Shown here: in pieces, positions 851-63,605 of the stretch
Numbering within the stretch: position 1 is the first letter of the stretch
Layout of the letters: the number at the start of each line of letters is the position of its first letter
Made by a program: the position numbers and the translations under genes
The notes under the pieces: generated by a model
Seen by the model: only the letters and a program-made list of their open reading frames with translations
Databases searched by the model: none
What the model was told of the DNA's origin: nothing
Sequence record: MK310184
From: Phage NC-G
Length of the DNA stretch: 64,000 bases
Reading direction: 5' to 3' (one strand)

Positions 851-1141
851 TTATTTACGGAACGAGATAAAACCTGCGGCGGTCATTAATGGCTGCTTTT
901 TAACAAAGACCGTGATAGAAATAGGAGCTTCAGATTCAAGCTGGCCGGTTACTACACCATTAAAGATATTTTCAGTTTGTTCGGGTTGTGAAAAATTTTC
1001 AACCGGGCGTAAGTCGAACTGTTTGTCTTCGCCGAAAACTCGACGTAATTCATTACCTACTGCACTGTCGAACTCTTCAGAAGCAGGGATAACGTTTTCA
1101 ACTACCAGCTCTTGACCATTAAAACGGAATGCAGATTTCAT
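851..1141 (-). CDS. Hypothetical protein (96 aa) downstream of alt
   Basis: ORF with GAGGAG Shine-Dalgarno and its own early promoter immediately upstream. Confidence 0.55.
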   Translation of the reverse strand: MKSAFRFNGQELVVENVIPASEEFDSAVGNELRRVFGEDKQFDLRPVENFSQPEQTENIFNGVVTGQLESEAPISITVFVKKQPLMTAAGFISFRK

Positions 1142-1169
1142 AATGTTCTCCTCATGTTTGTGTAAGGTA

Positions 1170-1199
1170 ATAGTACCACATCCTTGTGGCGTTGTAAAC
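1170..1199 (-). promoter_or_regulatory. Early sigma70-type promoter (GTTTAC -35, TACTAT -10)
   Basis: Minus strand reads GTTTAC, 18 nt, TACTAT; same motif family as about 15 other sites. Confidence 0.5.
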
Positions 1200-8915: not shown

Positions 8916-9202
8916 TAGAACCTCATCTGGAATCCATGTGATTTAACATTACCGCCGTAGATGTCAGAAGTATTGACTTCGCGGGCGACACTTGGGTCGA
9001 TGTTAATATCGCGGTTGAGCTTAGTGATTGCTAGGGTGTCACGACCATTGACTGTACGGAATTCTACTGGACAAACCACATCAGCATAGGCCTTAATGGA
9101 TTCACGAGTAGGCTGTTTGTCAGCAGGAACATCTTTACCTGCCTTAGAGAAAACAACTTCACAGAAATTTTTACGAGTATCGAAATAAGTGGTCATAAAC
9201 AT
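8915..9202 (-). CDS. Hypothetical protein (about 95 aa; start at MFMTTYF)
   Basis: The track's N-terminal extension is the translation of an upstream hairpin; GAGGA Shine-Dalgarno precedes the internal ATG. Confidence 0.5.
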   Translation of the reverse strand: MFMTTYFDTRKNFCEVVFSKAGKDVPADKQPTRESIKAYADVVCPVEFRTVNGRDTLAITKLNRDINIDPSVAREVNTSDIYGGNVKSHGFQMRF

Positions 9203-9218
9203 AATATTTTCCTCAAAG

Positions 9219-9234
9219 GAGGCCGAAGCCTCCA
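9219..9234 (-). terminator. C(UUCG)G hairpin
   Basis: Minus strand ggaggc-uucg-gcctcc between two early genes. Confidence 0.45.
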
Positions 9235-9244
9235 TTTTTTAAGA

Positions 9245-9610
9245 TTAGATATCAAATTCATTCAGAACTACATCAAAGATTGCTTCCAGGTGTTCAGGTT
9301 TAGCACGGTTGCTCAGGATATGACGAATCCAGGTTTTAACCAGAAGCTTACGATTATCACCGTTCCAGCAAGGATGGGTACCTAAATCACGTTGACGGAA
9401 ATCATCGTCTAAAGCGATTTTAAAAGTAGAACCTTCCATAGTGATTGAAACCGTGATACCATTTTCAAAGCGCATATAAACGTAGTTAGGAGTCATGCAC
9501 TGTTCGATTTCGCACACTGTGCCGTTGTTGTGTTTCCACAGGCAAATAACTTCAGAAGAACCAGCGATACCGTTAGAAACATATTTACGTTCGAAGTTGA
9601 TGTAGTTCAT
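9245..9610 (-). CDS. Hypothetical protein (121 aa)
   Basis: ORF with a conserved 5' leader and promoter cassette upstream. Confidence 0.55.
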   Translation of the reverse strand: MNYINFERKYVSNGIAGSSEVICLWKHNNGTVCEIEQCMTPNYVYMRFENGITVSITMEGSTFKIALDDDFRQRDLGTHPCWNGDNRKLLVKTWIRHILSNRAKPEHLEAIFDVVLNEFDI

Positions 9611-9681
9611 TTTATTCTCCAGTTTGTTTTCGTATTATTTGGTACAGGTCTATAATAACACAACCTGTACCAAAGTAAAAC
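9608..9681 (-). promoter_or_regulatory. Early promoter and leader cassette (PeSL-like), copy 1
   Basis: About 40 bp near-identical to 10014-10052, covering start codon, Shine-Dalgarno and leader; inverted repeat ggtacagg...cctgtacc flanks the -10. Confidence 0.5.
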
Positions 9682-9683
9682 AT

Positions 9684-10016
9684 TTATTTCACAACATTCC
9701 AATTTTTCATATCAAGTTTACCAACTTTTTTCATCTGAGCAATCAGACGTTCAGCACGTGTACGGGCATTAACGTAATAGAATTCACCAATTTTGTTTTC
9801 TTCGATACGACCAGTAATTACAGTTTTCAGTTCATAAATCCAACCTGTAAAGAAGTTGTGAAGCTCGATGGTAAATGTGAAATCAGTACCCATACCTTCA
9901 GTTGTTTCAACTTCGATGATATCACCTTCAACTGCAGTCAGGACCCACATGGTTTCTTGATATTCACCGTTGAAACATTTAGCTTTAACAGATGCATTCA
10001 GGTTTACAGTTTTCAT
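9684..10016 (-). CDS. Hypothetical protein (110 aa)
   Basis: ORF with the same leader cassette as the neighbouring gene. Confidence 0.55.
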   Translation of the reverse strand: MKTVNLNASVKAKCFNGEYQETMWVLTAVEGDIIEVETTEGMGTDFTFTIELHNFFTGWIYELKTVITGRIEENKIGEFYYVNARTRAERLIAQMKKVGKLDMKNWNVVK

Positions 10017-10076
10017 TTTATTCTCCAGTTTGTTTTCGTATTATTTGGTACATGTCTATAGTATCATGCCTACCGG
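10014..10076 (-). promoter_or_regulatory. Early promoter and leader cassette (PeSL-like), copy 2
   Basis: Minus strand GTATAC, 17 nt, TACTAT-AGAC; the leader matches copy 1 with one mismatch. Confidence 0.5.
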
Positions 10077-10114
10077 AGATGTATACCCTTTTTTAAAGAT
10101 TTAGAAACAAAAAT

Positions 10115-10132
10115 GGGACTCCGAAGAGTCCC
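10115..10132 (-). terminator. Rho-independent terminator, C(UUCG)G hairpin
   Basis: Minus strand gggactc-uucg-gagtccc followed by ATTTTTGTTT. Confidence 0.7.
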
Positions 10133-10137
10133 ATAAC

Positions 10138-10299
10138 TTATGCAATAACTTTACCGAAGCAAGCAGCATCTGCACGCAATACTGCACGAGCACGAGCTTG
10201 AAGCTTATCAACTACCTGATTGATACGCTTGTTAGACGCACGCTTGTAACCAGCGCGTTTAGAGGTTCCGTCAACTACTTTAACTTCTTTCTTAGCCAT
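10138..10299 (-). CDS. Small basic protein (53 aa), absent from the ORF track
   Basis: Hand translation gives MAKKEVKVVDGTSKRAGYKRASNKRINQVVDKLQARARAVLRADAACFGKVIA; strong terminator directly downstream. Confidence 0.5.
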   Translation of the reverse strand: MAKKEVKVVDGTSKRAGYKRASNKRINQVVDKLQARARAVLRADAACFGKVIA

Positions 10300-10652
10300 T
10301 TTTAAATCTCTTAAATTAGGATGCAGGACTTATTGGCGTTGCCTGCGCAAGCCCTCAAGGGGAACATAGGTTTCGGATATTTAACGACAGGATAACCATA
10401 AACCTCGTCATCATAGCTCTTATCTGTTGCACACCGTTAGCTTAAAGGTTCCGGGTTCGATTTCTCGAGGATAAGATATATACTGATGGATATATAGGCC
10501 TTGAGGCGTACTCCCGATTGGCCATCACCTCGGGGTAGCATGCACTTGCCGCTATAAAATAACATTCAAGAGGTACACCGTAAAACTGTCGGGGTCTTAA
10601 AACTATAATGATTCGCAAATCATTAATCAGACAGTTCGACGGCTCCTCGATT
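10300..10652. other. ORF-free island of about 350 bp between rIII and the small basic protein gene
   Basis: No ORF above about 35 codons on either strand; long-range complement between 10351-10360 and 10499-10508; GGTTCGATT T-loop-like motif that does not fold into a tRNA. Confidence 0.5.
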
Positions 10653-10901
10653 TTACTTCAGGGTAATAATAAAATGACGTACTGCTTTACGAGCTGCTGA
10701 AGCCAAAGGCTTAGCATATTTCAGTTCATCTTTTGCTTCCAGTTCAGCAGCCAGAGTAGCCTGAGCAGGATTCAGATGTTTGAAATAACGCAGGATTTCC
10801 AGTGCTTCGGCTTCAACATCAATAGATGCGCCATAGTTTTCGTGACCGTTGTTCCAAGCGTTGCGTTGCAGTTCAAGAGCGTGATTCAGATGTTTGTTCA
10901 T
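10653..10901 (-). CDS. rIII: rIII lysis-inhibition accessory protein
   Basis: Internal start MNKHLNHALELQRNAWNNGHENYGASIDVEAEALEIL... (82 aa) fits my recollection of T4 rIII; position between 31 and the 30.x genes. Confidence 0.75.
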   Translation of the reverse strand: MNKHLNHALELQRNAWNNGHENYGASIDVEAEALEILRYFKHLNPAQATLAAELEAKDELKYAKPLASAARKAVRHFIITLK

Positions 10902-11047
10902 TTTAAATTCTCGATTCGAGATAAAGATTGGTGGACACGTTCTTCTGAATTTCACTTCCTTTCGGCAAGTCTCTCAGTTGTAGTCCACCGCTTAGAATTG
11001 TTCGGTTAACTTATTATTCCGACACCCAATTCATATTATTATTTATA

Positions 11048-11371: not shown

Positions 11372-11429
11372 ATTTAATCCATGTTGTTTTGTTGATAGAT
11401 TAATAATAACACACTATTTTTAAAGCATA

Positions 11430-11726
11430 TTACAGGACAAGCAGAGTTTCAGTCTGAAGGCCGTCAACTGTAATCAGCTTATCGAAACGGAATGAACGCC
11501 ATTGTTGAAGGTCGACATCAAAAACATATAGAGAATTACGTGGGCCTGGTTTACCTGTTTCGGATTTGAAGTCTTCCTTTTTAGGAAGAAGGTCCAGGTC
11601 ACGGGTGCATTTAAGACGACGGATATCACCATTAATCTTTTCAAATACCACTTCGTGGGTGCCTACAGACAGGATGGTTTTTACTTTTTCACAAATACGA
11701 ATGGTTTCTTGTTCAGTTAAAATCAT
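11430..11726 (-). CDS. Hypothetical protein (98 aa)
   Basis: ORF in the 31-to-cd interval. Confidence 0.5.
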   Translation of the reverse strand: MILTEQETIRICEKVKTILSVGTHEVVFEKINGDIRRLKCTRDLDLLPKKEDFKSETGKPGPRNSLYVFDVDLQQWRSFRFDKLITVDGLQTETLLVL

Positions 11727-12507: not shown

Positions 12508-12887
12508 TACATCACCACTAGATAAGCTGTGTTATTGGTTTCGACACGATATAAATCGGTACGAAGTTTAGTGATAGATTTCACACGTGAGGTTAATATA
12601 CCACAACCATCTGGGAAGCGTTTTTGTTTATCGAAAAATACTGCTGCTGGTATCCTATCACCAATTTCAACCGGAAGAAAAGTAGCCAGTACCGCACCAT
12701 ACATAGAAGTATGGATGCTTTGGAATTCTTCGCTCAGCTTAAAAAGGTCTTTGATATACTGAGTGGCCTTTTCAGAGAGACCTCGATGGTCTCCATCTTC
12801 GTCAGATTGTAAGGTGGCATTAACTGCTAGTTTTAAATTAAGCATCAATATATACTCGCTGCGCTTCGACCAGACCATCAGAACCAA
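12507..12887 (-). CDS. Hypothetical protein
   Basis: ORF; true start probably an internal Met, since the track ORF overlaps the upstream gene. Confidence 0.45.
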   Translation of the reverse strand: MVLMVWSKRSEYILMLNLKLAVNATLQSDEDGDHRGLSEKATQYIKDLFKLSEEFQSIHTSMYGAVLATFLPVEIGDRIPAAVFFDKQKRFPDGCGILTSRVKSITKLRTDLYRVETNNTAYLVVM

Positions 12888-13074: not shown

Positions 13075-13739
13075 TAGATGGTCTCCAACTTAAGTTGTTT
13101 GGTAGTGGTAGCTTGGGTAACGTCGCCTTTAACAATATAACACACTTGTTGGAACGAACTGGTCAAAAGCTCTTCGGCCTGACGATCGGCTTGTTCCTTT
13201 GTGTTATGGCGAGAATGAACTTCAATCTTACCATTTTTAACGATAAGCACTTTCCAATCCGCAGTGGCTTTTACTGGTTTAGGTTCGTCATTTTCAGGAA
13301 TACTCACCGAGGCCAGTGGACGTACCACTTCAATAAAGTAATCGAATTCGTGGCCAAAAAAGCCTGTTGAATTAAAAAGAACGGCATTTGCATCATCAGG
13401 ATTACCTGTGATTTTGCTCGGGTCGACAAACATCATCTCGTCATATACACGAATTCGGCTTACACGTTCACGCCCATTATGGTAATCAATTTCAACTTCA
13501 AAAGGGTTCATACCTACATACTTGGCAAAAGCCGTATTGAGGCCGTAAGCGCCGTTATTAGTGAATTTGTTTTTAGTGTATTCACTACCGAACTTATAAA
13601 ACTTACGCTCTTCAAAGAACTTGCTCATTTCGATTTCCTCATTTGTTTCGGTAGGACTACTATACCACAGTCCTACCATGATGTAAACACTTAAATTGCT
13701 TCGACAACTACCGTTTGTTTCTGGAAGTCCATTTTGCAT
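13074..13739 (-). CDS. Hypothetical protein (probably about 184 aa, start MSKFFEERK)
   Basis: ORF; N-terminal extension overlaps the upstream gene. Confidence 0.5.
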   Translation of the reverse strand: MQNGLPETNGSCRSNLSVYIMVGLWYSSPTETNEEIEMSKFFEERKFYKFGSEYTKNKFTNNGAYGLNTAFAKYVGMNPFEVEIDYHNGRERVSRIRVYDEMMFVDPSKITGNPDDANAVLFNSTGFFGHEFDYFIEVVRPLASVSIPENDEPKPVKATADWKVLIVKNGKIEVHSRHNTKEQADRQAEELLTSSFQQVCYIVKGDVTQATTTKQLKLETI

Positions 13740-15607: not shown

Positions 15608-16122
15608 ACACCAAGCTCCTTATAAAGTTCTTCACGACAAGTTTTAAGGATTTTACCTGATTCGTAAGCTGCACTTTCAGAAACATCACCAAGTGCAACA
15701 GCAGATTGCATTTGACCATGGCGCTTAGCCGCGTATTCAAAACTTTTTACTAGTTCGCGAATACGTTCTTTTTCATTGTACTCTTCAATGAATTCAGAGT
15801 ATTCCCAAACTGGACGCATCATACGATACCACTGTTGGACGGTAATATAATTACTTCCATCTAAATTAATAATCTGTGAAGGCTCAATAGCACCAGGAGC
15901 ATAAAAAGTTACCTGTCTTACTACATCAATACCGTCCACAATAGCCCAAGCAAAATCGAAAGTGGCCTTCTTTTCAATTGGTGTACTTGCACAGGACCCT
16001 AATTTTAAGAGCTTTTGTAATACAGGAGATTTAATACTTGAAATGTATTCAGGCTTAGCCACAAAACTGTTATCACGTAATGTCATAATAATTTCCTCAA
16101 TTTTTATAATCCGTAGGACCAT
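15604..16122 (-). CDS. Hypothetical protein (172 aa)
   Basis: ORF. Confidence 0.5.
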
Positions 16123-16253
16123 TATACTCTGATCCCAAGAGTTTGTAAACTACTTTCCAAAAATACCATTCATACACAGGCTGAACACGATACCAAAGCA
16201 AAAACATGCAGCACCGAATTTAAAAACACCCCACCCATCGATACAGGCTTCAA

Positions 16254-16894: not shown

Positions 16895-17382
16895 TTGGTA
16901 ATAATCTCGATGATGTCATCACGTGACAGGGAGTTGATAAGAACCGTTTTAGGGTTTTCACACTGGATTTTATACGTTTCAAACATCACGCACAATTCTT
17001 CAGCGGTATGGTAAGGGCTCGAAATGCCAAGGCGATTAAACTTATCGCTTAATGGGTCGCAAATCAAATAGAAAGTGATTCCTGCGATTTTGACATTAGG
17101 TTGGCTGATATTAATGAATACCTCAGCATCATACTTGGAAAGGTTGTTTTGGAGAAACTCTACCATAGAGTTAACAGCTTCCGGCATGGCTTCACGCTTT
17201 TCTTCTGCATAACGGGTAGAGTATTCTTTTTGCTTAATTTTCTTTTTAGCATTTTTAGCTAAAGTAACACGAAGATCGGTTAGGTACCCTACTGCACGAG
17301 AACCTTTAAAAACTTGGATACCGTCAGTAGAGTCACCAAAAGCTTTAACAACCATTTCGTTGGTAATCATTTGCATATTCAT
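16882..17382 (-). CDS. Hypothetical protein in the alc position (166 aa)
   Basis: Size and position between rnlA and the spanins fit T4 alc; no sequence confirmation. Confidence 0.35.
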   Translation of the reverse strand: MNMQMITNEMVVKAFGDSTDGIQVFKGSRAVGYLTDLRVTLAKNAKKKIKQKEYSTRYAEEKREAMPEAVNSMVEFLQNNLSKYDAEVFINISQPNVKIAGITFYLICDPLSDKFNRLGISSPYHTAEELCVMFETYKIQCENPKTVLINSLSRDDIIEIITKCLN

Positions 17383-17407
17383 TTTGTTTTCTCCTCATTA
17401 GTTGGTA

Positions 17408-17451
17408 AGTCTATACTAACACATCATGAGGAGATGTAAACTACTCTATCA
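17408..17451 (-). promoter_or_regulatory. Early promoter (GTTTAC, 17 nt, TAGTAT-AGAC)
   Basis: Motif-family member overlapping the 3' end of rnlA. Confidence 0.45.
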
Positions 17452-24526: not shown

Positions 24527-24693
24527 ACAAAGTTTCTTCAGCTTTTTCCAGAGCTTCAGGGTTGTTACCTTGGATTGTGAAGTACCATTTGCCTTTAACT
24601 TCAGAATCGTTGATTGATTCGCGTTGTAATTTCATTTTATTCTCCTCAAGTTGATAAGGCTATAGTATCACTACCATAGCCTGTCGTAAACAA

Positions 24694-24921
24694 TTATTTT
24701 TGAATTAAGCCCATATAAAATTCAGCATCTTCAGCATGCATACCATCACAATACTCGTCAGCCATAAAACGAGTCAGGTCTTCAAGAGGACCTTGGATTT
24801 CAATTTGGATACTAAAGAATTGAGTATCTTTGATGTAAGCCATACTCAAAGAAGGATAACGATTACGGATAACTTCGTAAGTGTATTCAAAATCAACGAT
24901 ATCAATATTAACCTTAGCCAT
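24694..24921 (-). CDS. Hypothetical protein (75 aa)
   Basis: ORF preceded by an early promoter cassette. Confidence 0.5.
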
Positions 24922-24981
24922 TTTATTTTCCTCATGTAGTTGATAGGTCTATAGTATCTCAACCATAGACCATTGTAAACA

Positions 24982-25254: not shown

Positions 25255-25714
25255 AAGTAGCTTTAATCAAGGCAATGACTTCAGCAGCATTTTTGTGATT
25301 AACCTGCACATGAATGGTTTGTGTATCAACTACAGGAGCATTCTCATCCACTTCTAAGAAATATTGGAATTCGCCTTCAGCGAGTTCAAAGTAATCATCG
25401 CCGTTATCCAGACTATCAAGGATGGTGCCATCTTTCATTTCAACTTTTTCAACAAAATAATCGCCTTCAACAAAGCTCATATCCAGAACTTTAAAGGTGT
25501 CACCACACTCTGCCATCCGCTTAACCATAAGTGCATTATCATCTGGACAGTCTGCAATAAAATGTTTTTTAGCAGCAGGGTCTAATACGTAAATTTTACC
25601 AGTTTCCATTTTTATTTCCTCATGTTTTGATAGGTCTATAGTATCATGTTTAAAGGGGTTGTAAACCATTAAATGCCAAAAAGGGAAGACCGAAGTCTTC
25701 CCATTATAAATCAA
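25244..25714 (-). CDS. Hypothetical protein (likely about 121 aa, start METGKIY)
   Basis: ORF; Shine-Dalgarno before the internal Met; promoter cassette upstream. Confidence 0.5.
   Translation of the reverse strand: MIYNGKTSVFPFWHLMVYNPFKHDTIDLSKHEEIKMETGKIYVLDPAAKKHFIADCPDDNALMVKRMAECGDTFKVLDMSFVEGDYFVEKVEMKDGTILDSLDNGDDYFELAEGEFQYFLEVDENAPVVDTQTIHVQVNHKNAAEVIALIKATFGI
25682..25701 (-). terminator. Rho-independent terminator after gene 32
   Basis: Minus strand gggaagac-uucg-gtcttccc followed by a T-run. Confidence 0.65.
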
Positions 25715-28536: not shown

Positions 28537-29484
28537 TTAATAAAAATCAGCTACTGTAGCAGTTAGTTTAGACAAACCGGATTTAACGAAATAAGGATAA
28601 ACTTTAGATTTCGAAGGTTTGTTATACGTATTATATCTTTCGGTAATTAAAGCAACAATATCATCTGGAATAAAGTCCATATCAATTAAGATTTGGTTTT
28701 CACAGAAACGTTCATATTGTTCTTCAGTAAGAAGTGCTTTAATTATATCATGGTCGTAATAATTAAGAGCAATTGCTTCAAGTTCTTTAGCACGAGTACT
28801 TGGAGTACGTTCGCCTTCAACCATAGTCAACCAATAATCACCACGAACTTTAATACTTGCAACGTTATCCTTTCGGTCACCTTTAACAACTTTAGTTACG
28901 CAATCAAGCAAAGCATCACCAGATTTTGTTTTGACGAATTTTTTCTGCATTGGAGACCATTGTTTTACCCCAGGGAATTTATGAAGCTGGGTAAAGTCAC
29001 CATCGGAAGAACCAATCATAACCGGATGGCCTTTAGCCGTAAGGATACGAGTCAATACAGCAATATGGTCATCGGCCTCGATTGTATCGATATTCATAAC
29101 AATATAAGGCATATTATGTTCAAGCTCATCAACAATAATATGCATTGCCGTAAATAAGCCTTCCCAGTCAAACGGTGATTCATCACGAGCCTTAGCACGG
29201 TTTTTCTTATAATAAGAGGAATAACGACGGCGCCAATAACCTGATTTAGAGTTATCAACACAAATAATTAATTGGTTGTAACCTTGTTTACGGAAGTCTT
29301 TAATGTTTTTCTTAATTGAATTCAACACGAGGTGACGAAGCATTGCTGTAGTTACTTTAGGAAATCCTGCATTTTCACCAAATTCTTGGAAGGCCGCAGC
29401 CATAATGATTTGGCTGAAATCTAGGAGTAAAAACCCATCTTTTTGTTGGTCTTCTTCAGGAAGTAAAAAATCTAAATCGTTCAT
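28537..29484 (-). CDS. rnh: RNase H (5'-3' exonuclease / flap endonuclease)
   Basis: LLLDFSQI..., CVDNSKSGYWRR...YKKNR, EADDHIAVL, SSDGDFTQLHK match T4 RNase H. Confidence 0.92.
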   Translation of the reverse strand: MNDLDFLLPEEDQQKDGFLLLDFSQIIMAAAFQEFGENAGFPKVTTAMLRHLVLNSIKKNIKDFRKQGYNQLIICVDNSKSGYWRRRYSSYYKKNRAKARDESPFDWEGLFTAMHIIVDELEHNMPYIVMNIDTIEADDHIAVLTRILTAKGHPVMIGSSDGDFTQLHKFPGVKQWSPMQKKFVKTKSGDALLDCVTKVVKGDRKDNVASIKVRGDYWLTMVEGERTPSTRAKELEAIALNYYDHDIIKALLTEEQYERFCENQILIDMDFIPDDIVALITERYNTYNKPSKSKVYPYFVKSGLSKLTATVADFY

Positions 29485-29551
29485 ATGAACCTCTGTTCAA
29501 GTAGTTGAGATGTCCATTATATCACGGCCTTAGGATAAGTAAACACTTTGC

Positions 29552-40205: not shown

Positions 40206-40477
40206 AAATTGGAGGTATACATCATTAAGTAACGGTGTATATCTTCATACCCTTCATTAAATTGCTCAATAAGAGTATCACGTTCATCTTCAGTTAAAGA
40301 CTTAAAGAGTTTATTAAAAGATAGACCGTTAAGTTCCTTTCCATGTTCATTACGAATACCCAACTCATTCAAAAAGGCAATAAACTCATCACGACGTTGC
40401 ATGATGTCTTCACAATCCGTTTTAATCAAAATAGAAACAATGGTAGCAATTTCGGAAACGATTTCAATTTTAGTCAT
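40202..40477 (-). CDS. asiA: Anti-sigma70 factor AsiA
   Basis: 91 aa; IVSILIK...FIAFLNE...DTLIEQFNEGYE..YRYL.MYT matches T4 AsiA. Confidence 0.9.
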   Translation of the reverse strand: MTKIEIVSEIATIVSILIKTDCEDIMQRRDEFIAFLNELGIRNEHGKELNGLSFNKLFKSLTEDERDTLIEQFNEGYEDIHRYLMMYTSNF

Positions 40478-40789
40478 TTTAATTTACTCAAGTATTCAAT
40501 AGGACATTCATTTATTCAGTAATAATATTGTAACACTATTCTTCTGGGTTGTACACCTGATTTTTCATCCGTACAACATATTCCTGATACATTTCTTCGA
40601 TAGGTTCCTGGAACTTAAAATCAGCTCCTAGGAATTCCTCAAAGCACGCCTGCTCACGCGTACGCATACCTGTTACGGTGTTCTCTAAGTTATGACTCAT
40701 ACCCTTTACCCTTATGTTTCTGCTTACGCTTAGACTCTTTAAAATTTTTCTTCTTATCTTTATGGACGGAAGCCTTATTGAAATCGTGC

Positions 40790-42241: not shown

Positions 42242-42874
42242 TTAAATTGCATTAGTTACGGTTTTGATAACTTCAGATGATACGTTTTGGAAGTCAATAT
42301 AAGTATTCTTACCACCAGTCTTAATCTTAACATCAAGATTCAAGGAAGTAAACACTTGTTTTTCTTTATCAGTCATATTATAACCGAAGATACGCATCAT
42401 TCCGTCACGACGGACTTCGATTTGGCGAATACCGTTGGTACGTTTAGCGAATCGAACTTCAAGATTGCTACGGTTTTCAGCAATTTCACGAATCTCGATA
42501 CGGTCTTCTAACAAAGATTTAACTTCATCAGCCAATACCACCATTTCAGGAGTAACACCACGTGAACTGCGAGTTTTACGTTTTTCCAACATCTCTGGAG
42601 CATTTTCAGAAGCGAACAGGTCGGCAGCTTTTTGAACTAGGTCCATTGCTTCACCCGTAGCCACCAGTCCATCACCGGATTTTTCGATGAATCCTTTCTT
42701 AATCAATACACCGATGTTAGAATTAACTACCGCAGCACTAAATTGCTCACTCAGGGCTTCACGGACTTCGCCTGAAGTGATGAAGTTATGCTTGATGATA
42801 TGTACTAAGATAGAAGCCGTTTTTTCATTCAGGACGTCTTCAGAAGCTTTGATGATATAAGTAATTTTAGACAT
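42242..42874 (-). CDS. motA: Middle-transcription activator MotA
   Basis: 210 aa; MSKITYIIKAS.DVLNEKTA...NSNIGVLIKKG..EKSGDGL matches T4 MotA. Confidence 0.9.
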   Translation of the reverse strand: MSKITYIIKASEDVLNEKTASILVHIIKHNFITSGEVREALSEQFSAAVVNSNIGVLIKKGFIEKSGDGLVATGEAMDLVQKAADLFASENAPEMLEKRKTRSSRGVTPEMVVLADEVKSLLEDRIEIREIAENRSNLEVRFAKRTNGIRQIEVRRDGMMRIFGYNMTDKEKQVFTSLNLDVKIKTGGKNTYIDFQNVSSEVIKTVTNAI

Positions 42875-42907
42875 TTTAATCTCCGATAACCATTTATTTG
42901 ATAGGTC

Positions 42908-42937
42908 TATAGTATCATGTTTAAAGCAGAAGTAAAC
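42908..42937 (-). promoter_or_regulatory. Early promoter for motA
   Basis: Minus strand GTTTAC, 18 nt, TACTAT-AGACCTATCAA. Confidence 0.5.
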
Positions 42938-42960: not shown

Positions 42961-42980
42961 AAGGAACCCGAAGGTTCCTT
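42961..42980 (-). terminator. C(UUCG)G terminator hairpin
   Basis: Minus strand ggaacc-uucg-ggttcc followed by a T-run. Confidence 0.6.
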
Positions 42981-44596: not shown

Positions 44597-44758
44597 TTAA
44601 TCATTTTTAATCATCTTAAGTAAGCCGACAGAAGTAGAAAGCACCCAGCCAATAAACAGAAAACTTAAGAATACCGGACCAGGGGTCCACACACCTAAAA
44701 AGAAGCAAACTGAACAGACTATAGCCATAATAAGTTCAATAAAAACTAGGATAATCAT
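44597..44758 (-). CDS. Small membrane protein (53 aa; ac-like position)
   Basis: Start at MIILVFIELIM; the longer track ORF runs through an upstream hairpin. Confidence 0.45.
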   Translation of the reverse strand: MIILVFIELIMAIVCSVCFFLGVWTPGPVFLSFLFIGWVLSTSVGLLKMIKND

Positions 44759-44768
44759 ATTTTCCTCA

Positions 44769-44876
44769 TTAGCGTCCGAAGACGCCTTTAGTTTTAAGAT
44801 TGATACGATAGAACTGCATCGCATGTTCATTATGGAAATTACTCCGTAATACAGTAGCCCAAGATTTCTTAATCAT
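44769..44876 (-). CDS. stp: Stp-like peptide, copy A (35 aa, N-terminally extended)
   Basis: Hand translation gives [35 protein letters not shown]; the core resembles T4 Stp as I recall it. Confidence 0.55.
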
Positions 44877-45022
44877 TTTTTGGTAAAGGCCTGTAGAATC
44901 AGAACAAATGCCAATATGAATTGTGGAATGGCCTGAGAAATGACCGAAGTTTCACCTGTTGTAATAGTCCAAATACCTAGATAAGTCCAAATACCCGCAG
45001 CAAAACCTTGTAAAATATTCAT
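44873..45022 (-). CDS. Small membrane protein (49 aa)
   Basis: [49 protein letters not shown]; ATGA overlap with the stp-A start. Confidence 0.4.
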
Positions 45023-45029
45023 ATTTTCC

Positions 45030-45110
45030 TCAAGGGCGTCCGAAGACGCCAGTTAATTTCAGATTATGACGGTGCCATTGCATCACATGTTCATTATAGA
45101 AATTACTCAT
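45030..45110 (-). CDS. stp: Stp-like peptide, copy B (26 aa)
   Basis: Hand translation gives [26 protein letters not shown]; same length as T4 Stp. Confidence 0.6.
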
Positions 45111-45277: not shown

Positions 45278-45727
45278 TTAATAACTCTGTAGAACGAATT
45301 TAAAGTTATCAGCCAACATGCGGTTCATTTCTTCCAGGGTCTGAAGGTCGGAACTATGGTTGCGAGTGAAAGCCATTGCAATTTGACCCTTACCAAAACC
45401 TGTAGTCAGTGGTTTCATTTTAGAAGCAGGTACATAAAGAACTTCATACACTACACCGTTCACAGCCATAGTGCGAGCTGATTGAGAACGTTTCTTACGG
45501 ATGTTAGCCACAATACCATCAAGACCTTGAGCTGAACGTTGGTTGCCGACATAAAAGCGAGCGGCTACGACACGAGAATCTGCTTCACCTTTAACAAAGA
45601 AGTAGAAGCCTGGCTGGGCAGCGATTTCTTTAGAAGGCTTACCATTTTGGTATTCGCCATTCTTAACATAAGCAACAGTAGTAGCACCAGCAGACAGAAC
45701 GTCACGGCGAGTCATATAAGTATTCAT
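45278..45727 (-). CDS. ndd: Ndd-like protein (nucleoid disruption), assigned by synteny
   Basis: 149 aa immediately upstream of stp, as in T4; sequence identity not independently recalled. Confidence 0.5.
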
Positions 45728-45804
45728 ATCAATTTCCTCAGTAGATTAATGTTTTGTTATCCAGTCAACGAGAACCATTATAACATGATTCTCGAGGTTG
45801 TAAA

Positions 45805-46149
45805 CTATTTTTGTAGCTGTTCTAAAATAAATCCGCTCGTATAAAAAGAAGCATTATAAACCTTGTTCAGCGGGTTCAAAGCACGTCCGTAAGTATCACG
45901 TAATTCTTTGATAACGTTTTCATAACTCACGTAGTAAGCACTATGATAACCTGGGTCCATACTCATACGAAATTTAATGAACCGATAAAAGCCTGTTTCC
46001 GGGTCTTGAACGAAAACGAAATCAGCACTCGTCATAATCTTTGAATGTACGCCGGGAATCATACTTTGATTGAATGCCACCGATGCATCCTGAAGGCTGA
46101 GTTGTTTAAAGAACATTACCTTAGCATTACCAAAAAATACTTTAGACAT
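45805..46149 (-). CDS. Hypothetical protein (114 aa)
   Basis: ORF. Confidence 0.5.
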   Translation of the reverse strand: MSKVFFGNAKVMFFKQLSLQDASVAFNQSMIPGVHSKIMTSADFVFVQDPETGFYRFIKFRMSMDPGYHSAYYVSYENVIKELRDTYGRALNPLNKVYNASFYTSGFILEQLQK

Positions 46150-46430: not shown

Positions 46431-46535
46431 TCATAAAAACTATTGGGAAAATGCTCAATACAACCAATAGCACAAACATGTTCCAAATTGCTTTAAGTAA
46501 GTTTTTCATAATCATCTCCATTAGTTGATAGGTCT

Positions 46536-46564
46536 ATAGTATCATGTCTAATGGAGATGTAAAC
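46536..46564 (-). promoter_or_regulatory. Early promoter (canonical member of the motif family)
   Basis: Minus strand GTTTAC, 17 nt, TACTAT-AGACCTATCAAC. Confidence 0.5.
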
Positions 46565-46654: not shown

Positions 46655-46930
46655 TCATAATACTATCTCTTTTATTTCCATAAACCCATCATTCAGTGCA
46701 TGGCGGAGTTCATAATGGATATCTATACCATCGACATTATCTAATTTACCGTCGATAAGTTTTTGTAAATCTTTTTTTGACGCTATCAAAGGACGAAGAA
46801 ATCTACAATTAGAAAGGGATAATTCCGTAATAACATCTTCACCTGATGCATCGTACATTGCGGCAACAACTTTACCCGTAACTTTGTGTTTAGCGTAATA
46901 TAATTTGATATCCATTTTGTTTCCTCTCAT
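46655..46930 (-). CDS. Hypothetical protein (91 aa)
   Basis: ORF. Confidence 0.5.
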   Translation of the reverse strand: MRGNKMDIKLYYAKHKVTGKVVAAMYDASGEDVITELSLSNCRFLRPLIASKKDLQKLIDGKLDNVDGIDIHYELRHALNDGFMEIKEIVL

Positions 46931-46989
46931 GTAGTTGATAGGAAGATAGTAACACCATCCGTGGCGTATGTAAACACTTATTTTAAAAA

Positions 46990-51505: not shown

Positions 51506-51815
51506 TTTTAACTACCTCATGTTGAACATATTCTCTGGTAGAACCTAGTTCAGCCAGAATTCTTCTCATAGAACCCATTGTACTTTTGTGCTCTCTGTGG
51601 CGATACAATATCTCTAAAACCTTTTCCTGGACAACAGGAGAGAGCGCCTGGTTATCTTTAATCTTTAAGGCAATAGATTTTACAGCCTTTAAGTATTCTA
51701 ACCCCTTACCGCTTGTAATCACTACTCCTTCATCTTTACAGTTACGAATAGCCGTTTCCATAAAGGATAAAGCCAAGTTGTCAGTGTTCACTATACTATT
51801 ATCTTGCATAATCAT
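51492..51815 (-). CDS. Hypothetical protein (107 aa)
   Basis: ORF with an early promoter motif upstream. Confidence 0.5.
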   Translation of the reverse strand: MIMQDNSIVNTDNLALSFMETAIRNCKDEGVVITSGKGLEYLKAVKSIALKIKDNQALSPVVQEKVLEILYRHREHKSTMGSMRRILAELGSTREYVQHEVVKNDKL

Positions 51816-51870
51816 ATTCTCACCTCTTAGAGAATCGTATCACACTTTTAACCTGTTGTAAACCCCCGAA

Positions 51871-54800: not shown

Positions 54801-55011
54801 TATAAGTTTCCTTCCAGAAGTCGGTGCCTTCAGCAGTGATTTCACGGAACACTGCATAGATAGGATTTTTATCACCTTGATTTTTGTATACATAAACCGA
54901 CGATAAATGAGAAAATGTATCAGAATGTTCCTTTTGAACCACGATTAAATCAGGGTTGAACAGAACGTCTTCAAATTCTTCACGGGTCGAGTTCACGGTA
55001 ACTTTAGCCAT
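54787..55011 (-). CDS. Hypothetical protein (74 aa)
   Basis: ORF preceded by a promoter cassette. Confidence 0.5.
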   Translation of the reverse strand: MAKVTVNSTREEFEDVLFNPDLIVVQKEHSDTFSHLSSVYVYKNQGDKNPIYAVFREITAEGTDFWKETYNDQI

Positions 55012-55084
55012 TTTATTTTCCTCTCATTTGTTGATAGGGTAATCTTATCACTACCCTATATTGTTGTACACTACTTTTTAAACT

Positions 55085-55588
55085 TTATGCACGATGAATA
55101 TTGGCATACTCGACGATAAAGCTTTCAGGAACCACCTTAAAGGTTCCAAGGAACACGATGTTATAGAGCTTAACGCCTTCTTCAACCCACTGGTCAGTGA
55201 TGTACCCAGACATGCTAGTGGTTTCGTAAGTACCAAACTCTCCATCAATATATTCAAACGGTTTATGTGAAACGAAAAAGACGCCTTGACCTAATTTCCA
55301 TTTGAAATCAACACCAACATGAGACTGATCGATGGTTTCAACTTCTTCAACTACAGGAGCGACACATCCAGTAAATTCAGTTGATTCCAGGAATTTAGAA
55401 CGCACGTAGCCGAATTGTGTTTCCGTCTGGCCATTTTTAGGAATAATACGTACTTTTACTTCAGCGTTTTCAGGTCTGACACCTTCTTTAAGTTGAATAC
55501 TAACAACTTCAACTAAACGGCCTGCAGCTTTTGAACGAGATTGTTTGGATACGCGAACGATACCACCGATATCGGAAATAGTAATCAT
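55085..55588 (-). CDS. Hypothetical protein (167 aa; motB position) sharing a C-terminal module with its neighbour
   Basis: C-terminal ITDQWVEEGVKLYNIVFLGTFKVVPESFIV is paralogous to the end of the 248 aa neighbour. Confidence 0.5.
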   Translation of the reverse strand: MITISDIGGIVRVSKQSRSKAAGRLVEVVSIQLKEGVRPENAEVKVRIIPKNGQTETQFGYVRSKFLESTEFTGCVAPVVEEVETIDQSHVGVDFKWKLGQGVFFVSHKPFEYIDGEFGTYETTSMSGYITDQWVEEGVKLYNIVFLGTFKVVPESFIVEYANIHRA

Positions 55589-55661
55589 AATTTTTCTCTC
55601 TTGGTTAAAGGTTTATTCTCCATGAGAGCCATTATAACATGGCTCTCGATAAAGTAAACTA

Positions 55662-56408: not shown

Positions 56409-56914
56409 AATTGTCTCATTTCAATAAAATCTACGAGTTCAGCATGGGATTTGCGGAACATTACTTGGTGGTCACCAATGACAACCTCATCTTCAGGTAT
56501 TTCGTAAACAGCAAGATAGAATCCTTTAGAAGATAATTCTTCTCGCTCTTCATGACTGAACCAGCGCATCATATCATACTCACTGGCAAAAGCAAAATGA
56601 TAGAGGTGAACAAACCAACTAGGTATATAGTTATCTACACCATTATAATCAGGGCGACCCCACTTAGTATTAATTGCTCTATTAGAATTCGCAACCAACA
56701 ATTTATCTTGGGATGGTACCGGGATATTTTTAGTATTGCTATGATGGTGTCTAAAATCAGGTTTATTATAACCCGCTTCTAATAACCATCCTTCACTCCA
56801 CTCGTCGAATAATCCGCTATATGGTGTTAACTGACGACTCGCCTGTCTGGTGATTGCGATAGCGTTTCTGTCATCTAAAACACTGAATGATGATTCAACT
56901 CTATAAATTTTCAT
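56405..56914 (-). CDS. Hypothetical protein (169 aa)
   Basis: ORF preceded by a promoter cassette. Confidence 0.5.
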   Translation of the reverse strand: MKIYRVESSFSVLDDRNAIAITRQASRQLTPYSGLFDEWSEGWLLEAGYNKPDFRHHHSNTKNIPVPSQDKLLVANSNRAINTKWGRPDYNGVDNYIPSWFVHLYHFAFASEYDMMRWFSHEEREELSSKGFYLAVYEIPEDEVVIGDHQVMFRKSHAELVDFIEMRQL

Positions 56915-56973
56915 TTTGTTCTCCTCATGTTGATAGGGCTATAGTATCATGTCATGAGGAGAAGTAAACACTT

Positions 56974-59520: not shown

Positions 59521-60285
59521 TTAACCTCTAATCAATGAAAAAATTGAAGCATTCAGCGGAAGACCTTTTTTCAACTTCATTTTGTCAATAAAAGAAAGGT
59601 GTTCTAAACGCTCCAGACCTTGAATAATTTTATCATACATATCGTAACGCGTTTCTGCTTCAGACAATTTAAACTTAACCCGCCAATCAGGCCCACCAAT
59701 TAAAGATTTAAGACCCTTTTCCATAGTACCGATTGAAGCATTAGAGCCATGGATACGGGCTTTAATCGCGATGACAGAAGGGGTCTTATCGGTAGCTCCT
59801 GATTTAATAAGGTCCTTAAGACGTTTTTCACGCTTTTTAAGGCCTCTTTGGGTATCTTTAATATTTTTAACTATTTTACGAATTTTATAATAATTATCGG
59901 GGGTTACTTTAAAACTATTAGGCATTTTAGAACTACCTGAAATACGAACTGCTAAACGAGTCTGGGCACGTTTCAGTTCATCAAGGGACAAATCGGCACG
60001 TAAGCTGTTATACTTAACTTTAACTGGGATTACATTACCCTCAATATAGCCGATATCGTTGTTAAAACGTTCAAATGAAATCTTGTCATTAACTGAATTT
60101 TCATCAAAGTACTCGCCTGAATAAGCACACACTTTTTGTTCGAGAAGTCTACGAACATACTTACTAGACAGATTGAAGTCCTTACCGCGTTTATAAGCAG
60201 AAGCTTTGGTGTGTTTGCGGCGGTTGTAAACCTTTAACTCAAATTCATCGTTAGTTTTAATAGTAGGCATGATATTTTTTCTCAT
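59521..60285 (-). CDS. Hypothetical basic protein (254 aa; srd position) with an HNH-like segment
   Basis: Segment CAYSGEYFD...SFERFNNDIGYIEGNVIPV resembles ER.D...GY..GNV signatures of some HNH-type nucleases. Confidence 0.4.
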   Translation of the reverse strand: MRKNIMPTIKTNDEFELKVYNRRKHTKASAYKRGKDFNLSSKYVRRLLEQKVCAYSGEYFDENSVNDKISFERFNNDIGYIEGNVIPVKVKYNSLRADLSLDELKRAQTRLAVRISGSSKMPNSFKVTPDNYYKIRKIVKNIKDTQRGLKKREKRLKDLIKSGATDKTPSVIAIKARIHGSNASIGTMEKGLKSLIGGPDWRVKFKLSEAETRYDMYDKIIQGLERLEHLSFIDKMKLKKGLPLNASIFSLIRG

Positions 60286-60311
60286 CTTACGGACGATTAG
60301 TTGATAGGTCT

Positions 60312-60340
60312 ATAGTATCATGTTGCTTAATAAAGTAAAC
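60312..60340 (-). promoter_or_regulatory. Early promoter
   Basis: Minus strand GTTTAC, 17 nt, TACTAT-AGACCTATCAA. Confidence 0.5.
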
Positions 60341-60409: not shown

Positions 60410-61024
60410 TCAGTAAGAAAGAACGGAAAGATTCCAAATGGTGTAATTATTCCATTTAGGATTTCTCTCAATAGAGTCTACGCGCAGCGTAGTTCCCGCA
60501 GGGAACATCATCTCATCTTCATCATTGATTAATTGTAAGTTTGCTACACGGGTAGATTCAGGAAATGCGCCTGGGAACTCTTCAGGGGGCGCAGCACATA
60601 ACATTTTAAAGATTTCTTCCTGATAATTGTACACAAATGGCGCATCATTAATACAAAAGATATTAAATGTGCCGTAGAAGTTATAAGATGCGAAATTCCT
60701 TGCCACGTTGAAGTCTTTAGAGAAGCTCATCACACGGTCGAATTCAATTACTGCACCTACACACATTGTGGACTCTAGATACTTCATAGTCTTTTTAGAT
60801 ATGCCGCGATAGAGCTTATCAGGCACTACAGAAGTCATATTCTTACGAATGATTTTGTTCAAAGTTTCTTGGATAGAATCCGGTTTATTTTCCATACACT
60901 GCCAGAGCGTGCTCTGTTCTAAATCAGAATACACCTCATCAATTTCTATCTGAGTATTCTCACGGAAATCATCGCATTTGGCATTGTTGATAAATTCTGC
61001 TAATTTATGGCTTGGGTATAACAT
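60410..61024 (-). CDS. ModA/ModB-family ADP-ribosyltransferase (204 aa)
   Basis: LYRGIS...MSFSKDF...MMFPAGT pattern (Arg, S-x-S, acidic) at T4 modA/modB position. Confidence 0.7.
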   Translation of the reverse strand: MLYPSHKLAEFINNAKCDDFRENTQIEIDEVYSDLEQSTLWQCMENKPDSIQETLNKIIRKNMTSVVPDKLYRGISKKTMKYLESTMCVGAVIEFDRVMSFSKDFNVARNFASYNFYGTFNIFCINDAPFVYNYQEEIFKMLCAAPPEEFPGAFPESTRVANLQLINDEDEMMFPAGTTLRVDSIERNPKWNNYTIWNLSVLSY

Positions 61025-61078
61025 ATTATTCTCCTCAGTTGATAGAAAGATAGTACCACACGCTTCCTTGCCTGTAAA

Positions 61079-61648
61079 CTAAAAATCCAACATTTTTAAA
61101 TGAATTGTTTTATACTCGATTTCGTACGGGTCCCTTTTGACGGTTTCGATTGCAACAATCTCAAATCGCGATAGACTAGAGACCATGAACTCACATTCGG
61201 TTTCAACCATATCATAGAGGTCAATACGGGTTTCATCTATTTCAAGCTCATCCACATTCCCTGCAAGAACAAGGTCGATAGCATGGTTGTAGTAGTCAAA
61301 AATGAAGGGTGCATTCCTGAGACTTAAAATGGTTTTTGTTCCATATTCCCAAGCCCCTGCGAACTGTCGAGCCTGGGAGTATTGAGTACTAAAAGAAGTA
61401 ACTCGACCAGGAGACCATTGACACCCTACTGAAAGGAGCTCTAATTGCTCAAGTTCTCTGGTGGTAATCCCACGATACAACTCTACCGGAACCGCTGAAG
61501 TAACATGCTTGCGAACCAGTTTGTCGAGGTCGTAATGGAAGTTAGGGTCTTTTTTGGCGTCCAGGCATTTTTCTAAAAGATTCTGTTCATGTTTTGAAAA
61601 TTTGGAATTGATTCGGTCTTGATAAAGACATTTTTGTTCGATGTTCAT
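61079..61648 (-). CDS. ModA/ModB-family ADP-ribosyltransferase (189 aa)
   Basis: LYRGIT...TSFSTQY...E motifs; paralog of the neighbouring gene. Confidence 0.7.
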   Translation of the reverse strand: MNIEQKCLYQDRINSKFSKHEQNLLEKCLDAKKDPNFHYDLDKLVRKHVTSAVPVELYRGITTRELEQLELLSVGCQWSPGRVTSFSTQYSQARQFAGAWEYGTKTILSLRNAPFIFDYYNHAIDLVLAGNVDELEIDETRIDLYDMVETECEFMVSSLSRFEIVAIETVKRDPYEIEYKTIHLKMLDF

Positions 61649-61700
61649 ATGACCTCCAGTGATTTAGAGGTCATTATAACATGAAGGGAGGAGGTGTAAA

Positions 61701-61946
61701 CTACTTAAACACACCAAGTGGGACGCCAAACACTGCAATGTCAGCAGCCATGCCTAATGAGGATTGGGTATATAAAGTATAGGAGCTTTTTGATTCATAA
61801 GAGCTTTTTGTTTCTGGCTTCTCGACTTCAATCTTAGGAGCTTTCGCCTGAATATTTTTTTGCTCGATTTCCCTACGAGCCTGTTTACGGTCGATATCCA
61901 ATGCCGATGTAGGTATATTAGTTAGCCAATTCATTATTTTACCCAA
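61701..61946 (-). CDS. Hypothetical protein (81 aa)
   Basis: ORF. Confidence 0.45.
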   Translation of the reverse strand: MGKIMNWLTNIPTSALDIDRKQARREIEQKNIQAKAPKIEVEKPETKSSYESKSSYTLYTQSSLGMAADIAVFGVPLGVFK

Positions 61947-63287: not shown

Positions 63288-63502
63288 TATAAGAACCCTC
63301 GTACAAATGAGACTTTAGGAAGTGGTTCGTCTTCGAAATCACTACGGATTTCAGCATTAAACTCAACAGAACCGTCTGCGTGCATCATGAAAGAATGCAC
63401 AACAACTTCAGCATACCATAGTTGAAGATCGTATTTCTGTATAACCTGACGAGCAATAACTTCATCTAAGGTTTGATTAGGTTTAATCCAACGATTTAAC
63501 AT
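63287..63502 (-). CDS. Hypothetical protein (71 aa; srh position)
   Basis: ORF adjacent to soc; early promoter upstream. Confidence 0.45.
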   Translation of the reverse strand: MLNRWIKPNQTLDEVIARQVIQKYDLQLWYAEVVVHSFMMHADGSVEFNAEIRSDFEDEPLPKVSFVRGFL

Positions 63503-63605
63503 AGTGTTCTCCTCTTGTTTTGATAGGACTACTATAACACTGTTTTACAAGGATGTAAACTGTAGAAACGAAAAAAGGAATCCCGAAGGATTCCTTATAA
63601 TTAAC

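Follow-up and report, generated by a model that had tools for sequence, protein, structure and literature searches.

Phage NC-G (sequence record MK310184) was analysed over a stretch of 64,000 nucleotides, hereafter the window, for repeated promoter and leader cassettes on its minus strand, two of which precede the adjacent genes 30.7 and 30.8. Over bases 9000-11000 the identity was 99.3% with Escherichia phage Esco_phi_B-01 and 98.6% with JS98, which places the window in a JS98-like T4-type coliphage of the genus Dhakavirus, Tevenvirinae. Genes 30.7 and 30.8 were assigned against the JS98 record, and both lie between the terminator that follows gene 30.9 and gene 30.6. Promoter sites are named by the first base of the -35 hexamer, which on the minus strand is the highest coordinate; P30.7 is thus site 9680 and P30.8 is site 10086. 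The features of this locus are listed below (SD, Shine-Dalgarno sequence; z, folding z-score).

9245..9610, minus strand: gene 30.7, 121 aa, Pfam PF06919; SD GGAG at 9617-9620
9606..9660, minus strand: direct repeat, copy 1 (reference copy), comprising the -10, start region, leader, SD and ATGAA of 30.7
9638..9674, minus strand: 12-bp inverted repeat enclosing the -10 of P30.7, TTTGGTACAGGT (9663-9674) and ACCTGTACCAAA (9638-9649); z = -3.5
9652..9680, minus strand: predicted early promoter P30.7, -35 TTTTAC (9675-9680), 17-nt spacer, TGn, -10 TATTAT (9652-9657)
9684..10016, minus strand: gene 30.8, allele A, 110 aa, 333 nt, Pfam PF06019; enclosed by the two cassettes
10012..10066, minus strand: direct repeat, copy 2, the same parts of 30.8; 55 nt, 95% identity to copy 1
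10022..10079, minus strand: spacer-SD pairing at P30.8, TCTCCGGT (10072-10079) with ACTGGAGA (10022-10029), 8 bp including one G-U
10058..10086, minus strand: predicted early promoter P30.8, -35 GTATAC (10081-10086), 17-nt spacer, -10 TACTAT (10058-10063)
10113..10134, minus strand: intrinsic terminator after gene 30.9, ATGGGACTC-TTCG-GAGTCCCAT followed by TTTTTG, 27 nt upstream of the P30.8 -35

An earlier note on this DNA had described an almost identical stretch of about 47 bp at two adjacent, unrelated genes, and both parts of that description held. The longest exact run within the 55-nt repeat is 41 nt (9606-9646 and 10012-10052, TGTACCAAATAATACGAAAACAAACTGGAGAATAAAATGAA), and the two copies are spaced 406 bp apart, which would also be the size of a 30.8 mini-circle formed by recombination between them. 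No BLASTP alignment was obtained between the 30.7 and 30.8 proteins, and their Pfam families differ. The element at 10113-10134 carries the signature of an intrinsic terminator, with a G+C-rich stem and a T-run directly after it.

The core of the P30.7 inverted repeat, GGTACAGG/CCTGTACC, is kept in T4 and in Mosigvirus and Dhakavirus relatives. The 30.8 leader contains the right arm of this hairpin (ACATGTACCAAA, 10044-10055), and the left partner is absent. Because the 30.8 copy has the right arm without the left, we infer that 30.8 acquired its leader in the JS98 lineage as a copy of that of 30.7. Near-identity of the two leaders is strongest in this lineage, and homogenisation is still fuller in IME341. 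The spacer-SD pairing of P30.8 is perfect in phage dhaeg (ACCGGAGA) and is kept by unlike sequences in T4 (TCCTTTGT/ACAAAGGA) and in the JS98 group (TCTCCGGT/AC(T/C)GGAGA).

Early promoter motifs in the window

A looser scan combined with a position-weight matrix identified 23 distinct sites, all on the minus strand, with the arrangement A-rich tract, GTTTAC, 17-18 nt, TGn-TAyTAT and the start region AGACCTATCAAC. The strict pattern GTTTAC-N17/18-TAHWRT gave 17 exact matches on the minus strand and none on the plus strand, compared with a mean of 0.50 and a maximum of 4 in dinucleotide-preserving shuffles. The -10 and start-region motif TAYTATAGMCYTATCAA, allowing up to 3 mismatches, matched 11 times, again only on the minus strand, with 1.6 matches expected. 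When the whole window was scored with the matrix (two blocks of 16.7 and 21.0 bits, 37.7 in total), a check that the earlier note had proposed, all 23 sites reached at least 15 bits, the top plus-strand score was 6.3, and the remaining high scores were one-base shifts of the same 23 sites. The note had counted at least 15 such sites on the minus strand. All of the positions it listed proved real (1170, 17408, 24660, 24950, 25638, 42908, 46536, 46946, 55030, 56940, 60312, 61050 and 63520, besides the two at 30.7 and 30.8), and eight sites were added, with -35 first bases at 13688, 16150, 29544, 40556, 45805, 51863, 55659 and 61701.

The surroundings of the sites agree with those of T4-type early promoters. 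Each of the 23 -10 boxes is followed, 18-49 nt downstream, by an ATG preceded by an SD of the GGAG/GAGG type. The 20 nt upstream of the -35 are 73% A+T and 40% A, compared with 60% and 31% in the window, as in an UP-like A-rich tract. The -35 is GTTTAC-like, the spacer is 17 +/- 1 nt, the -10 is TGn plus TAnnnT, and the sites are located 5' of early genes and oriented toward them; the genes downstream include motA, asiA, ndd, alt.-3, rnh, 30.7 and 30.8. Promoters are annotated at orthologous sites in the phage Lutter record, -35/-10 signals are annotated upstream of 30.7 in the TuIa record, and T4 itself carries orthologous P30.7 and P30.8. The consensus of the sites equals that published for T4 early promoters, in which GTTTAC occupies -36 to -31, the A-tract spans -40 to -44 and C is found from -3 to -1 (PMC1524935), within an "uber" UP/-35/TGn/-10 architecture that has further conserved positions (PMC2988021). 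In T4 the 30.7 mRNA, whose GGAG SD contains a RegB cleavage site, is an early transcript, as is the motA mRNA (PMC9409239). No catalogue of JS98-group early promoters was found in the literature searched.

Two other patterns were tried. A narrow one derived from the 30.7/30.8 repeat (TAYWATAGACMTGTACC) was rejected as a family motif, having matched those two copies and one chance match only. A generic sigma-70 consensus scan (TTGACA/TATAAT) did not discriminate in this A/T-rich genome (32 matches with 53 expected, and 67 with 58 expected); the T4-specific pattern alone was informative.

We consider it very probable that the 23 sites are sigma-70-dependent early promoters of a JS98-like T4-type phage, each fused to the leader, SD and start codon of an early gene, many with a hairpin, and used only opportunistically in recombination. 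Host RNA polymerase would read four elements, namely the A-rich UP-like tract, the T4-specific -35 GTTTAC, TGn and TAyTAT, and transcription would start some 7 nt beyond the -10, at the A of CCTATCAAC. The cassettes other than those of 30.7 and 30.8 are as follows.

1139..1199, minus strand: cassette upstream of alt.-3 (P1199); 4-bp hairpin within the spacer, CCAC/GTGG
13626..13688, minus strand: cassette P13688; 9-bp stem across the -10, GGTAGGACT/AGTCCTACC
16084..16150, minus strand: cassette P16150; stem across the -10, GGATC/GGTCC, one U-G pair
17380..17441, minus strand: cassette P17441; spacer TCTCCTCAT pairs with SD region ATGAGGAGA; z = -3.7
24633..24691, minus strand: cassette P24691; stem with the -10 in its right arm, AGGCTATGGTA/TACTATAGCCT; z = -3.3
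24919..24980, minus strand: cassette P24980; inverted repeat at 24946-24971, GGTCTATGGT/ACTATAGACC, one G-T pair; z = -3.0
25607..25666, minus strand: cassette P25666; no significant stem; hairpin and T-run just upstream
29482..29544, minus strand: cassette upstream of rnh (P29544); no significant stem
40475..40556, minus strand: cassette upstream of asiA (P40556); -35 GTGTAC
42872..42937, minus strand: cassette upstream of motA (PmotA, P42937); preceded by a terminator at 42961-42980
45725..45805, minus strand: cassette upstream of ndd (P45805); stem across the -10, GAGAATCAT/ATGGTTCTC, one U-G pair
46507..46564, minus strand: cassette P46564; spacer ATCTCCATTAG pairs with SD region CTAATGGAGAT; z = -6.1
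46913..46975, minus strand: cassette upstream of ndd.1 (P46975); 5-bp hairpin within the spacer; z = -2.0
51813..51863, minus strand: cassette P51863; preceded by the hairpin GGGCC-GCAA-GGCCC and TTTT
55009..55071, minus strand: cassette P55071; stem across the -10, ATAGGGTA/TACCCTAT; z = -3.2
55586..55659, minus strand: cassette P55659; 9-bp stem across the -10, GAGAGCCAT/ATGGCTCTC; z = -5.3
56912..56969, minus strand: cassette P56969; spacer TTCTCCTCATG pairs with SD region CATGAGGAGAA, 11 bp; z = -6.6
60268..60340, minus strand: cassette P60340; no significant stem
61022..61079, minus strand: cassette P61079; no significant stem
61646..61701, minus strand: cassette P61701; hairpin from the -10/start region to the SD, ATGACCTCT...GGAGGTCAT; z = -3.5
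63500..63560, minus strand: cassette P63560; preceded by a hairpin and T-run

A lookalike of a MotA-box middle promoter was also noted upstream of gene 31 (about 11392-11430, minus strand, atatGCTTtaaaaatagtgtgtTATTATtaatCTATCAAC); it has the early-promoter start-region motif CTATCAAC.

Inverted repeats within the cassettes

Each cassette was folded from the -35 to the ATG and scored against dinucleotide shuffles. The mean z-score was -2.2, with z < -2 in 13 of 23 cassettes. Complementarity of at least 7 bp between a promoter's own spacer and its own leader was present at 9 of 23 sites compared with 6.3% of mismatched promoter pairs, and none of 20,000 permutations reached the observed mean. 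The inverted repeat that the earlier note had given as its example, at 24945-24975, is present with one G-T pair, and by these permutations such repeats exceed chance.

The stems fall into classes according to what the spacer pairs with. In class A the spacer pairs with bases just after, or including, the -10 (9680, 13688, 16150, 24691, 24980, 45805, 55071 and 55659; 0 of 20,000 permutations). In class B it is the first part of the spacer, as a rule (A/T)TCTCC, that pairs with the SD region (56969, 46564 and 17441, and 10086 with one G-U; permutation p = 0.001). Site 61701 was grouped with class B, with the -10/start region pairing in place of the spacer; in read-through RNA, its hairpin would sequester the SD. 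At 1199 and 46975 a short hairpin is contained in the spacer. Stems across the -10 are thus a feature of the class A sites, 8 of 23; the others pair with the SD, lie within the spacer or lack a convincing stem. A hairpin followed by a T-run lies upstream of five promoters, namely four without a convincing stem (63560, 51863, 42937 and 25666) and P30.8, which has a class B stem.

The anti-SD sequence CTCC was observed at nt 3-6 after the -35 hexamer in 5 of 23 spacers (61701, 56969, 46564, 17441 and 10086). Four of these spacers begin with (A/T)TCTCC and that of 61701 with ACCTCC, and the same motif recurs in promoters of related phages.

Orthologous loci were fetched from related phages and their stems compared. 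At P13688 the orthologues have GGTAGGACT/AGTCCTACC, GGTAGAGTT/AGCTCTACC and GGTGGAGTT/AACTCTACC, with both partners altered in three pairs and the others being G-U. In the P16150 family the stems are GGGAGC/GCTCCC, GGGGTC/GACCCC and GGGAGC/GTTCCC, and GGATC/GGTCC in the window. The spacer hairpin of P1199, CCAC/GTGG in the window, is GCAC/GTGC at two related loci (L018/L019), a compensatory change. Compensated variants were likewise found for P46564 at three loci (L027-L029) and for P55071 at two (L030/L031, GGTAGGAGC/GTTCCTACC).

Among 125 unique predicted promoters, a scan of pairing registers found one register in which at least 8 of 9 positions were paired in 20 promoters and a second with 7, with most others at 0-1. 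Covariation over 100 distinct promoter cores was 0.226, compared with 0.163 after shuffling (0 of 500 shuffles reached the observed value) and 0.09-0.17 in slid controls, and in the same test 128 cells were changed on both sides compared with 73.5. The sense strand folded 1.4 kcal/mol better than the antisense strand (Wilcoxon p = 0.025), and the imperfect pairs are G-T on the sense strand. Together, the strand bias and the placement of the G-T pairs point to structure at the RNA level, in the direction of transcription.

Gene exchange at cassette junctions

The interval from the 30.9 stop codon to the 30.7 start codon was aligned for the window, JS98, Bp7, dhaeg, Lutter, T4 and 14 IMG/VR loci. 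Two alleles of 30.8, A (333 nt) and B (369 nt), segregate within Dhakavirus between flanks that are at least 96% identical, and B replaces A in dhaeg, IME341, CLB_P2 and IME08. In dhaeg and IME341 (locus L012) the upstream crossover falls within the leader/SD, dhaeg having the donor-type C 13 nt before the ATG. The downstream crossover in these phages falls in the -35/left arm of P30.7, with a donor-type -35 (GTTTAC) followed by a JS98-type spacer (GGTTGTGT).

A precise loss of 30.8 was also found. A synthetic query mimicking a deletion of 30.8 between the repeats matched in one piece in eight phages, of which AV109 and JM10 were inspected and belong to Mosigvirus. TuIa, an old isolate, also has no 30.8 and shows the same arrangement. 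In AV109 and TuIa the 30.7 coding sequence follows a P30.8-type promoter and leader, with the join at GGAGAATAAAATGAA; the join in JM10 is further upstream, at the -10. Phage C6 (L043, 465-821) has an extra open reading frame (ORF) between the 30.9 terminator and P30.8, encoding a 118-aa proline-rich product and having its own SD and terminator. The crossovers behind the replacement and loss of 30.8 thus map, by alignment, inside the cassettes, and the direction of these events is presumed.

A similar picture was seen at other cassettes when the flanking gene content of relatives was compared, as the earlier note had suggested. One P16150 cassette precedes three different ORFs across relatives, and the PmotA cassette at least four leaders/ORFs that differ from one another. 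Immediately upstream of the P61701 -35, a 233-bp segment (61701-61933) is missing in five Dhakavirus relatives, with the breakpoint at the -35 hexamer, and replacements end in P1199, P42937 and P46975.

We then counted breakpoints. Chained BLAST alignments of the window with about six Dhakavirus relatives gave 35 distinct indel or replacement events, with 70 endpoints. Phage vB_EcoM_005 (MK295203; loci L008, L023 and L039) was left out of the count; compared with every relative it lacks pieces of about 100 bp at many places along its length, which probably reflects faulty assembly and not biology. A chained event in L022 (25666 to 42897) turned out to be a spurious match of one promoter to another and was discarded. 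Cassettes, which make up 3.8% of bases, held 7 of the 70 endpoints (binomial p = 0.016), and promoter-less gene junctions, 9.6% of bases, held 38 (p = 1e-20). Per junction, this corresponds to 0.39 endpoints at cassettes and 0.57 at promoter-less junctions in these 35 events among about six relatives, and a preference for cassettes as breakpoints was therefore unsupported. The proposal that the cassettes mediate modular shuffling accordingly stands for the 30.8 swap and loss, where the junctions lie inside cassettes, and for the differing ORFs at P16150 and PmotA, and lacks support, on this sample, as a claim of preference. Shuffling at cassettes is real at the 30.8 locus but no stronger than at other gene junctions, and looks opportunistic. 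Near-identical short repeats at gene boundaries would be usable by the efficient recombination of the phage. The simplest reading is that any short conserved boundary patch may serve T4-type recombination and that selection keeps the products that respect junctions.

Several further observations were made in the window. A segment of about 345 bp (12509-12853) is absent from JS98 and from one other relative (L009), and both of its endpoints are at promoter-less gene junctions. The tandem alt (ADP-ribosyltransferase) paralogues at 2917-3199 and 5011-5293 are 73% identical over 283 nt, and relatives differ within both. Between rIII and 30.9 lie about 350 non-coding nt (10300-10652), of which the segment 10415-10553 is 137 bp in the window and JS98 and about 44 bp in most other relatives; an Rfam search gave no match anywhere in the window, this interval included. 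G+C-rich hairpins with a TTCG (UUCG) tetraloop occur on the minus strand at 9204-9237, 44757-44790, 45021-45054 and 47995-48028, directly upstream of start codons and their SDs (GGAGGC-TTCG-GCCTCC precedes 30.6, for instance), and may be a second kind of repeated intergenic module.

Possible hairpin function and comparison with known systems

Because the 5' arm of each hairpin lies in the spacer, upstream of the predicted transcription start, the hairpins would form only in read-through RNA from an upstream promoter, and their function would be at the RNA level. A class A hairpin would mark or insulate a transcription-unit boundary, either weakening read-through or making the 3' end of the upstream mRNA more stable. 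A class B hairpin would sequester the SD in read-through RNA and leave it free in promoter-proximal RNA, such that promoter-proximal transcripts alone are translated. We tentatively suggest that spacer-leader complementarity could be a general, selected, promoter-coupled insulator of T4-type early promoters; upstream-derived RNA would fold around the -10 or onto the SD and would then be translationally silent, or processed, with respect to the downstream gene.

Several points weigh against our reading of the 23 sites as promoter cassettes, many of them with a hairpin. About 8-10 of the 23 promoters have no convincing stem (about 13-15 have one), and the hairpin is thus not obligatory. The covariation controls remove relatedness among the sequences only partly, the excess stability of the sense strand is modest, and the fixed pairing register could reflect the smallest loop that fits the conserved TGn/-10 bases. 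For Phage NC-G, both the start sites and what becomes of read-through RNA were deduced from the DNA. The lower endpoint density at cassette junctions than at promoter-less ones belongs here as well.

The function first assigned to the stem-loops of promoter-early stem-loop (PeSL) cassettes was that of Rho-independent terminators, ending upstream transcripts at the next promoter, and one stem-loop of RB49/phi1 did reduce downstream lacZ expression as much as rrnB T1 (PMC2839356). In the window, however, a T-run follows none of the eight class A stems and none was called terminator-like by the scan, so that this role lacks its canonical features here and we rejected the -10-spanning stems as intrinsic terminators. 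The stems are 5-12 bp and often A/T-rich, and those of class B pair with the SD, which argues for translational rather than transcriptional control. The hairpin-plus-T-run elements that precede five promoters are separate from these stems and are what the terminator explanation can claim; for the stems themselves we regard it as unlikely. Action in the DNA, with cruciforms or single-strand hairpins at the -10 that tune promoter opening, are targets of structure-specific proteins (for example in early-promoter shut-off) or are recombination hot spots, would suit a dyad in fixed register relative to the -10, although the smallest loop around the conserved bases would give the same register. The shut-off of early promoters has been described as incompletely understood (PMC3014915), and Arbiol et al. 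speculated on a protein that targets the stem (PMC2839356). Yet the arms differ among promoters and offer no common sequence-specific site, for which reason a sequence-specific repressor binding the palindromes was rejected. Moreover, stem mismatches are G-T on the sense strand (A-C on the other), the sense strand folds better, and class B loops of about 30 nt are implausible as cruciforms; we judge a DNA-level role very improbable.

It is also conceivable, if somewhat doubtful, that the sites are promoters only. Their similarity would then reflect convergence or purifying selection on RNA polymerase contacts, and the 55-nt identity a single local gene conversion, with no special role in shuffling; rearrangements would end at cassettes as they do at any gene boundary, selection having removed intragenic breakpoints. 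The breakpoint counts fit this account, both classes of junction being enriched over intragenic sequence and cassettes having fewer endpoints per junction, and the ORF219 insertion of phage C6 used the terminator side, not the promoter. It is harder to reconcile with the several junctions placed within 15-20 bp inside repeated cassette parts (-35/left arm, -10, SD-ATG), with two independent 30.8-less configurations whose junctions differ within the repeat, or with single cassettes preceding 3-4 different ORFs. Similarity between promoters is also sufficient to give BLAST hits between unlinked loci, as in L022.

The analysis provides a complete early-promoter map, 23 sites with coordinates, for a 64-kb stretch of a JS98-like therapeutic-type coliphage, and in 30.8 a clear case from nature of a gene replaced or lost between a pair of promoter cassettes. 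It also raises two cautions for the PeSL idea. One is that in this lineage the stems, with their sense-strand bias, their pairing to the SD and their lack of a terminator T-run, resemble insulators that act in RNA; the other is that as sites of recombination the cassettes do not measurably surpass ordinary gene boundaries. Should SD sequestering hold, it would be a simple rule restricting early genes to their own promoter. If the insulator proposal is true, translation of many early genes would be tied strictly to the few minutes in which early promoters fire, in mirror image to what is known of the late-expressed genes e, soc, 49 and I-TevI, and this could contribute to the abrupt, poorly explained fall in early protein synthesis.

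Those T4 genes have the SD in a helix in long read-through transcripts, and a promoter inside the helix gives a shorter, translatable mRNA (PMC3014915). The same SD-sequestering logic may apply to class B. In the T4 cases the internal promoter is a late, gp55-dependent one and expression is delayed, whereas the early sigma-70 promoter of class B would restrict translation to the immediate-early period.

The cassettes resemble T4 early promoters (PMC2988021, PMC1524935) in the UP-like A-tract/GTTTAC/TGn/-10 arrangement, the conserved start positions and the orthologous gene positions (30.7, 30.8, motA, asiA, ndd and alt.-3), and P30.7 shares the GGTACAGG/CCTGTACC stem with its T4 counterpart. 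They differ in two lineage-specific details, a start region (AGACCTATCAAC) peculiar to the JS98 group and a preference for TACTAT.

The PeSL cassettes of coliphages RB49 and phi1 have terminator activity and form mini-circles, both shown experimentally (Arbiol et al. 2010, PMC2839356). They share with the window cassettes an A/T-rich tract, a strong sigma-70-type early promoter, a stem-loop (G-T allowed), an SD and start codon, and an intergenic location; in both, copies flank small ORFs that vary from one close relative to another and that are deleted when the flanking copies recombine. Stem positions in the window agree with the subclasses described there, "between -35 and -10 or overlapping the -10"; JS98 enters that paper solely through PeSL-like sequences near g43. 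The RB49/phi1 promoters are, in contrast, near-perfect TTGACA/TATAAT with mostly G-tract/C-tract stems, while the window has a GTTTAC -35, promoter-specific stems and a conserved start region. In the window, cassette junctions are not enriched for endpoints over other junctions. The PeSL terminator role is not simply transferable to the class A stems.

The T4 and PST PeSLs share with the window sites the promoter consensus TTTACW-N17-TAYWAT and the phage subfamily, and are likewise associated with ORF exchange, for example of ndd.4/.5 (Comeau, Arbiol and Krisch 2014, PMC4122927). Their stem-loops are drawn just upstream of the promoter, whereas in the window an upstream hairpin with a T-run is limited to five promoters and most stems either pair with the SD or overlap the -10. 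The match to PeSLs drawn by the earlier note was nonetheless borne out at the level of sequence components (PMC2839356, PMC4122927): an early promoter with a stem-loop (except at about 8 promoters), a 3' SD and start codon, an intergenic site, and ORF-swap junctions inside the cassettes. The promoter and PeSL class itself has already been described; the SD-pairing class, the compensatory changes, the sense-strand bias and the negative result on breakpoint preference go somewhat beyond the literature that we read.

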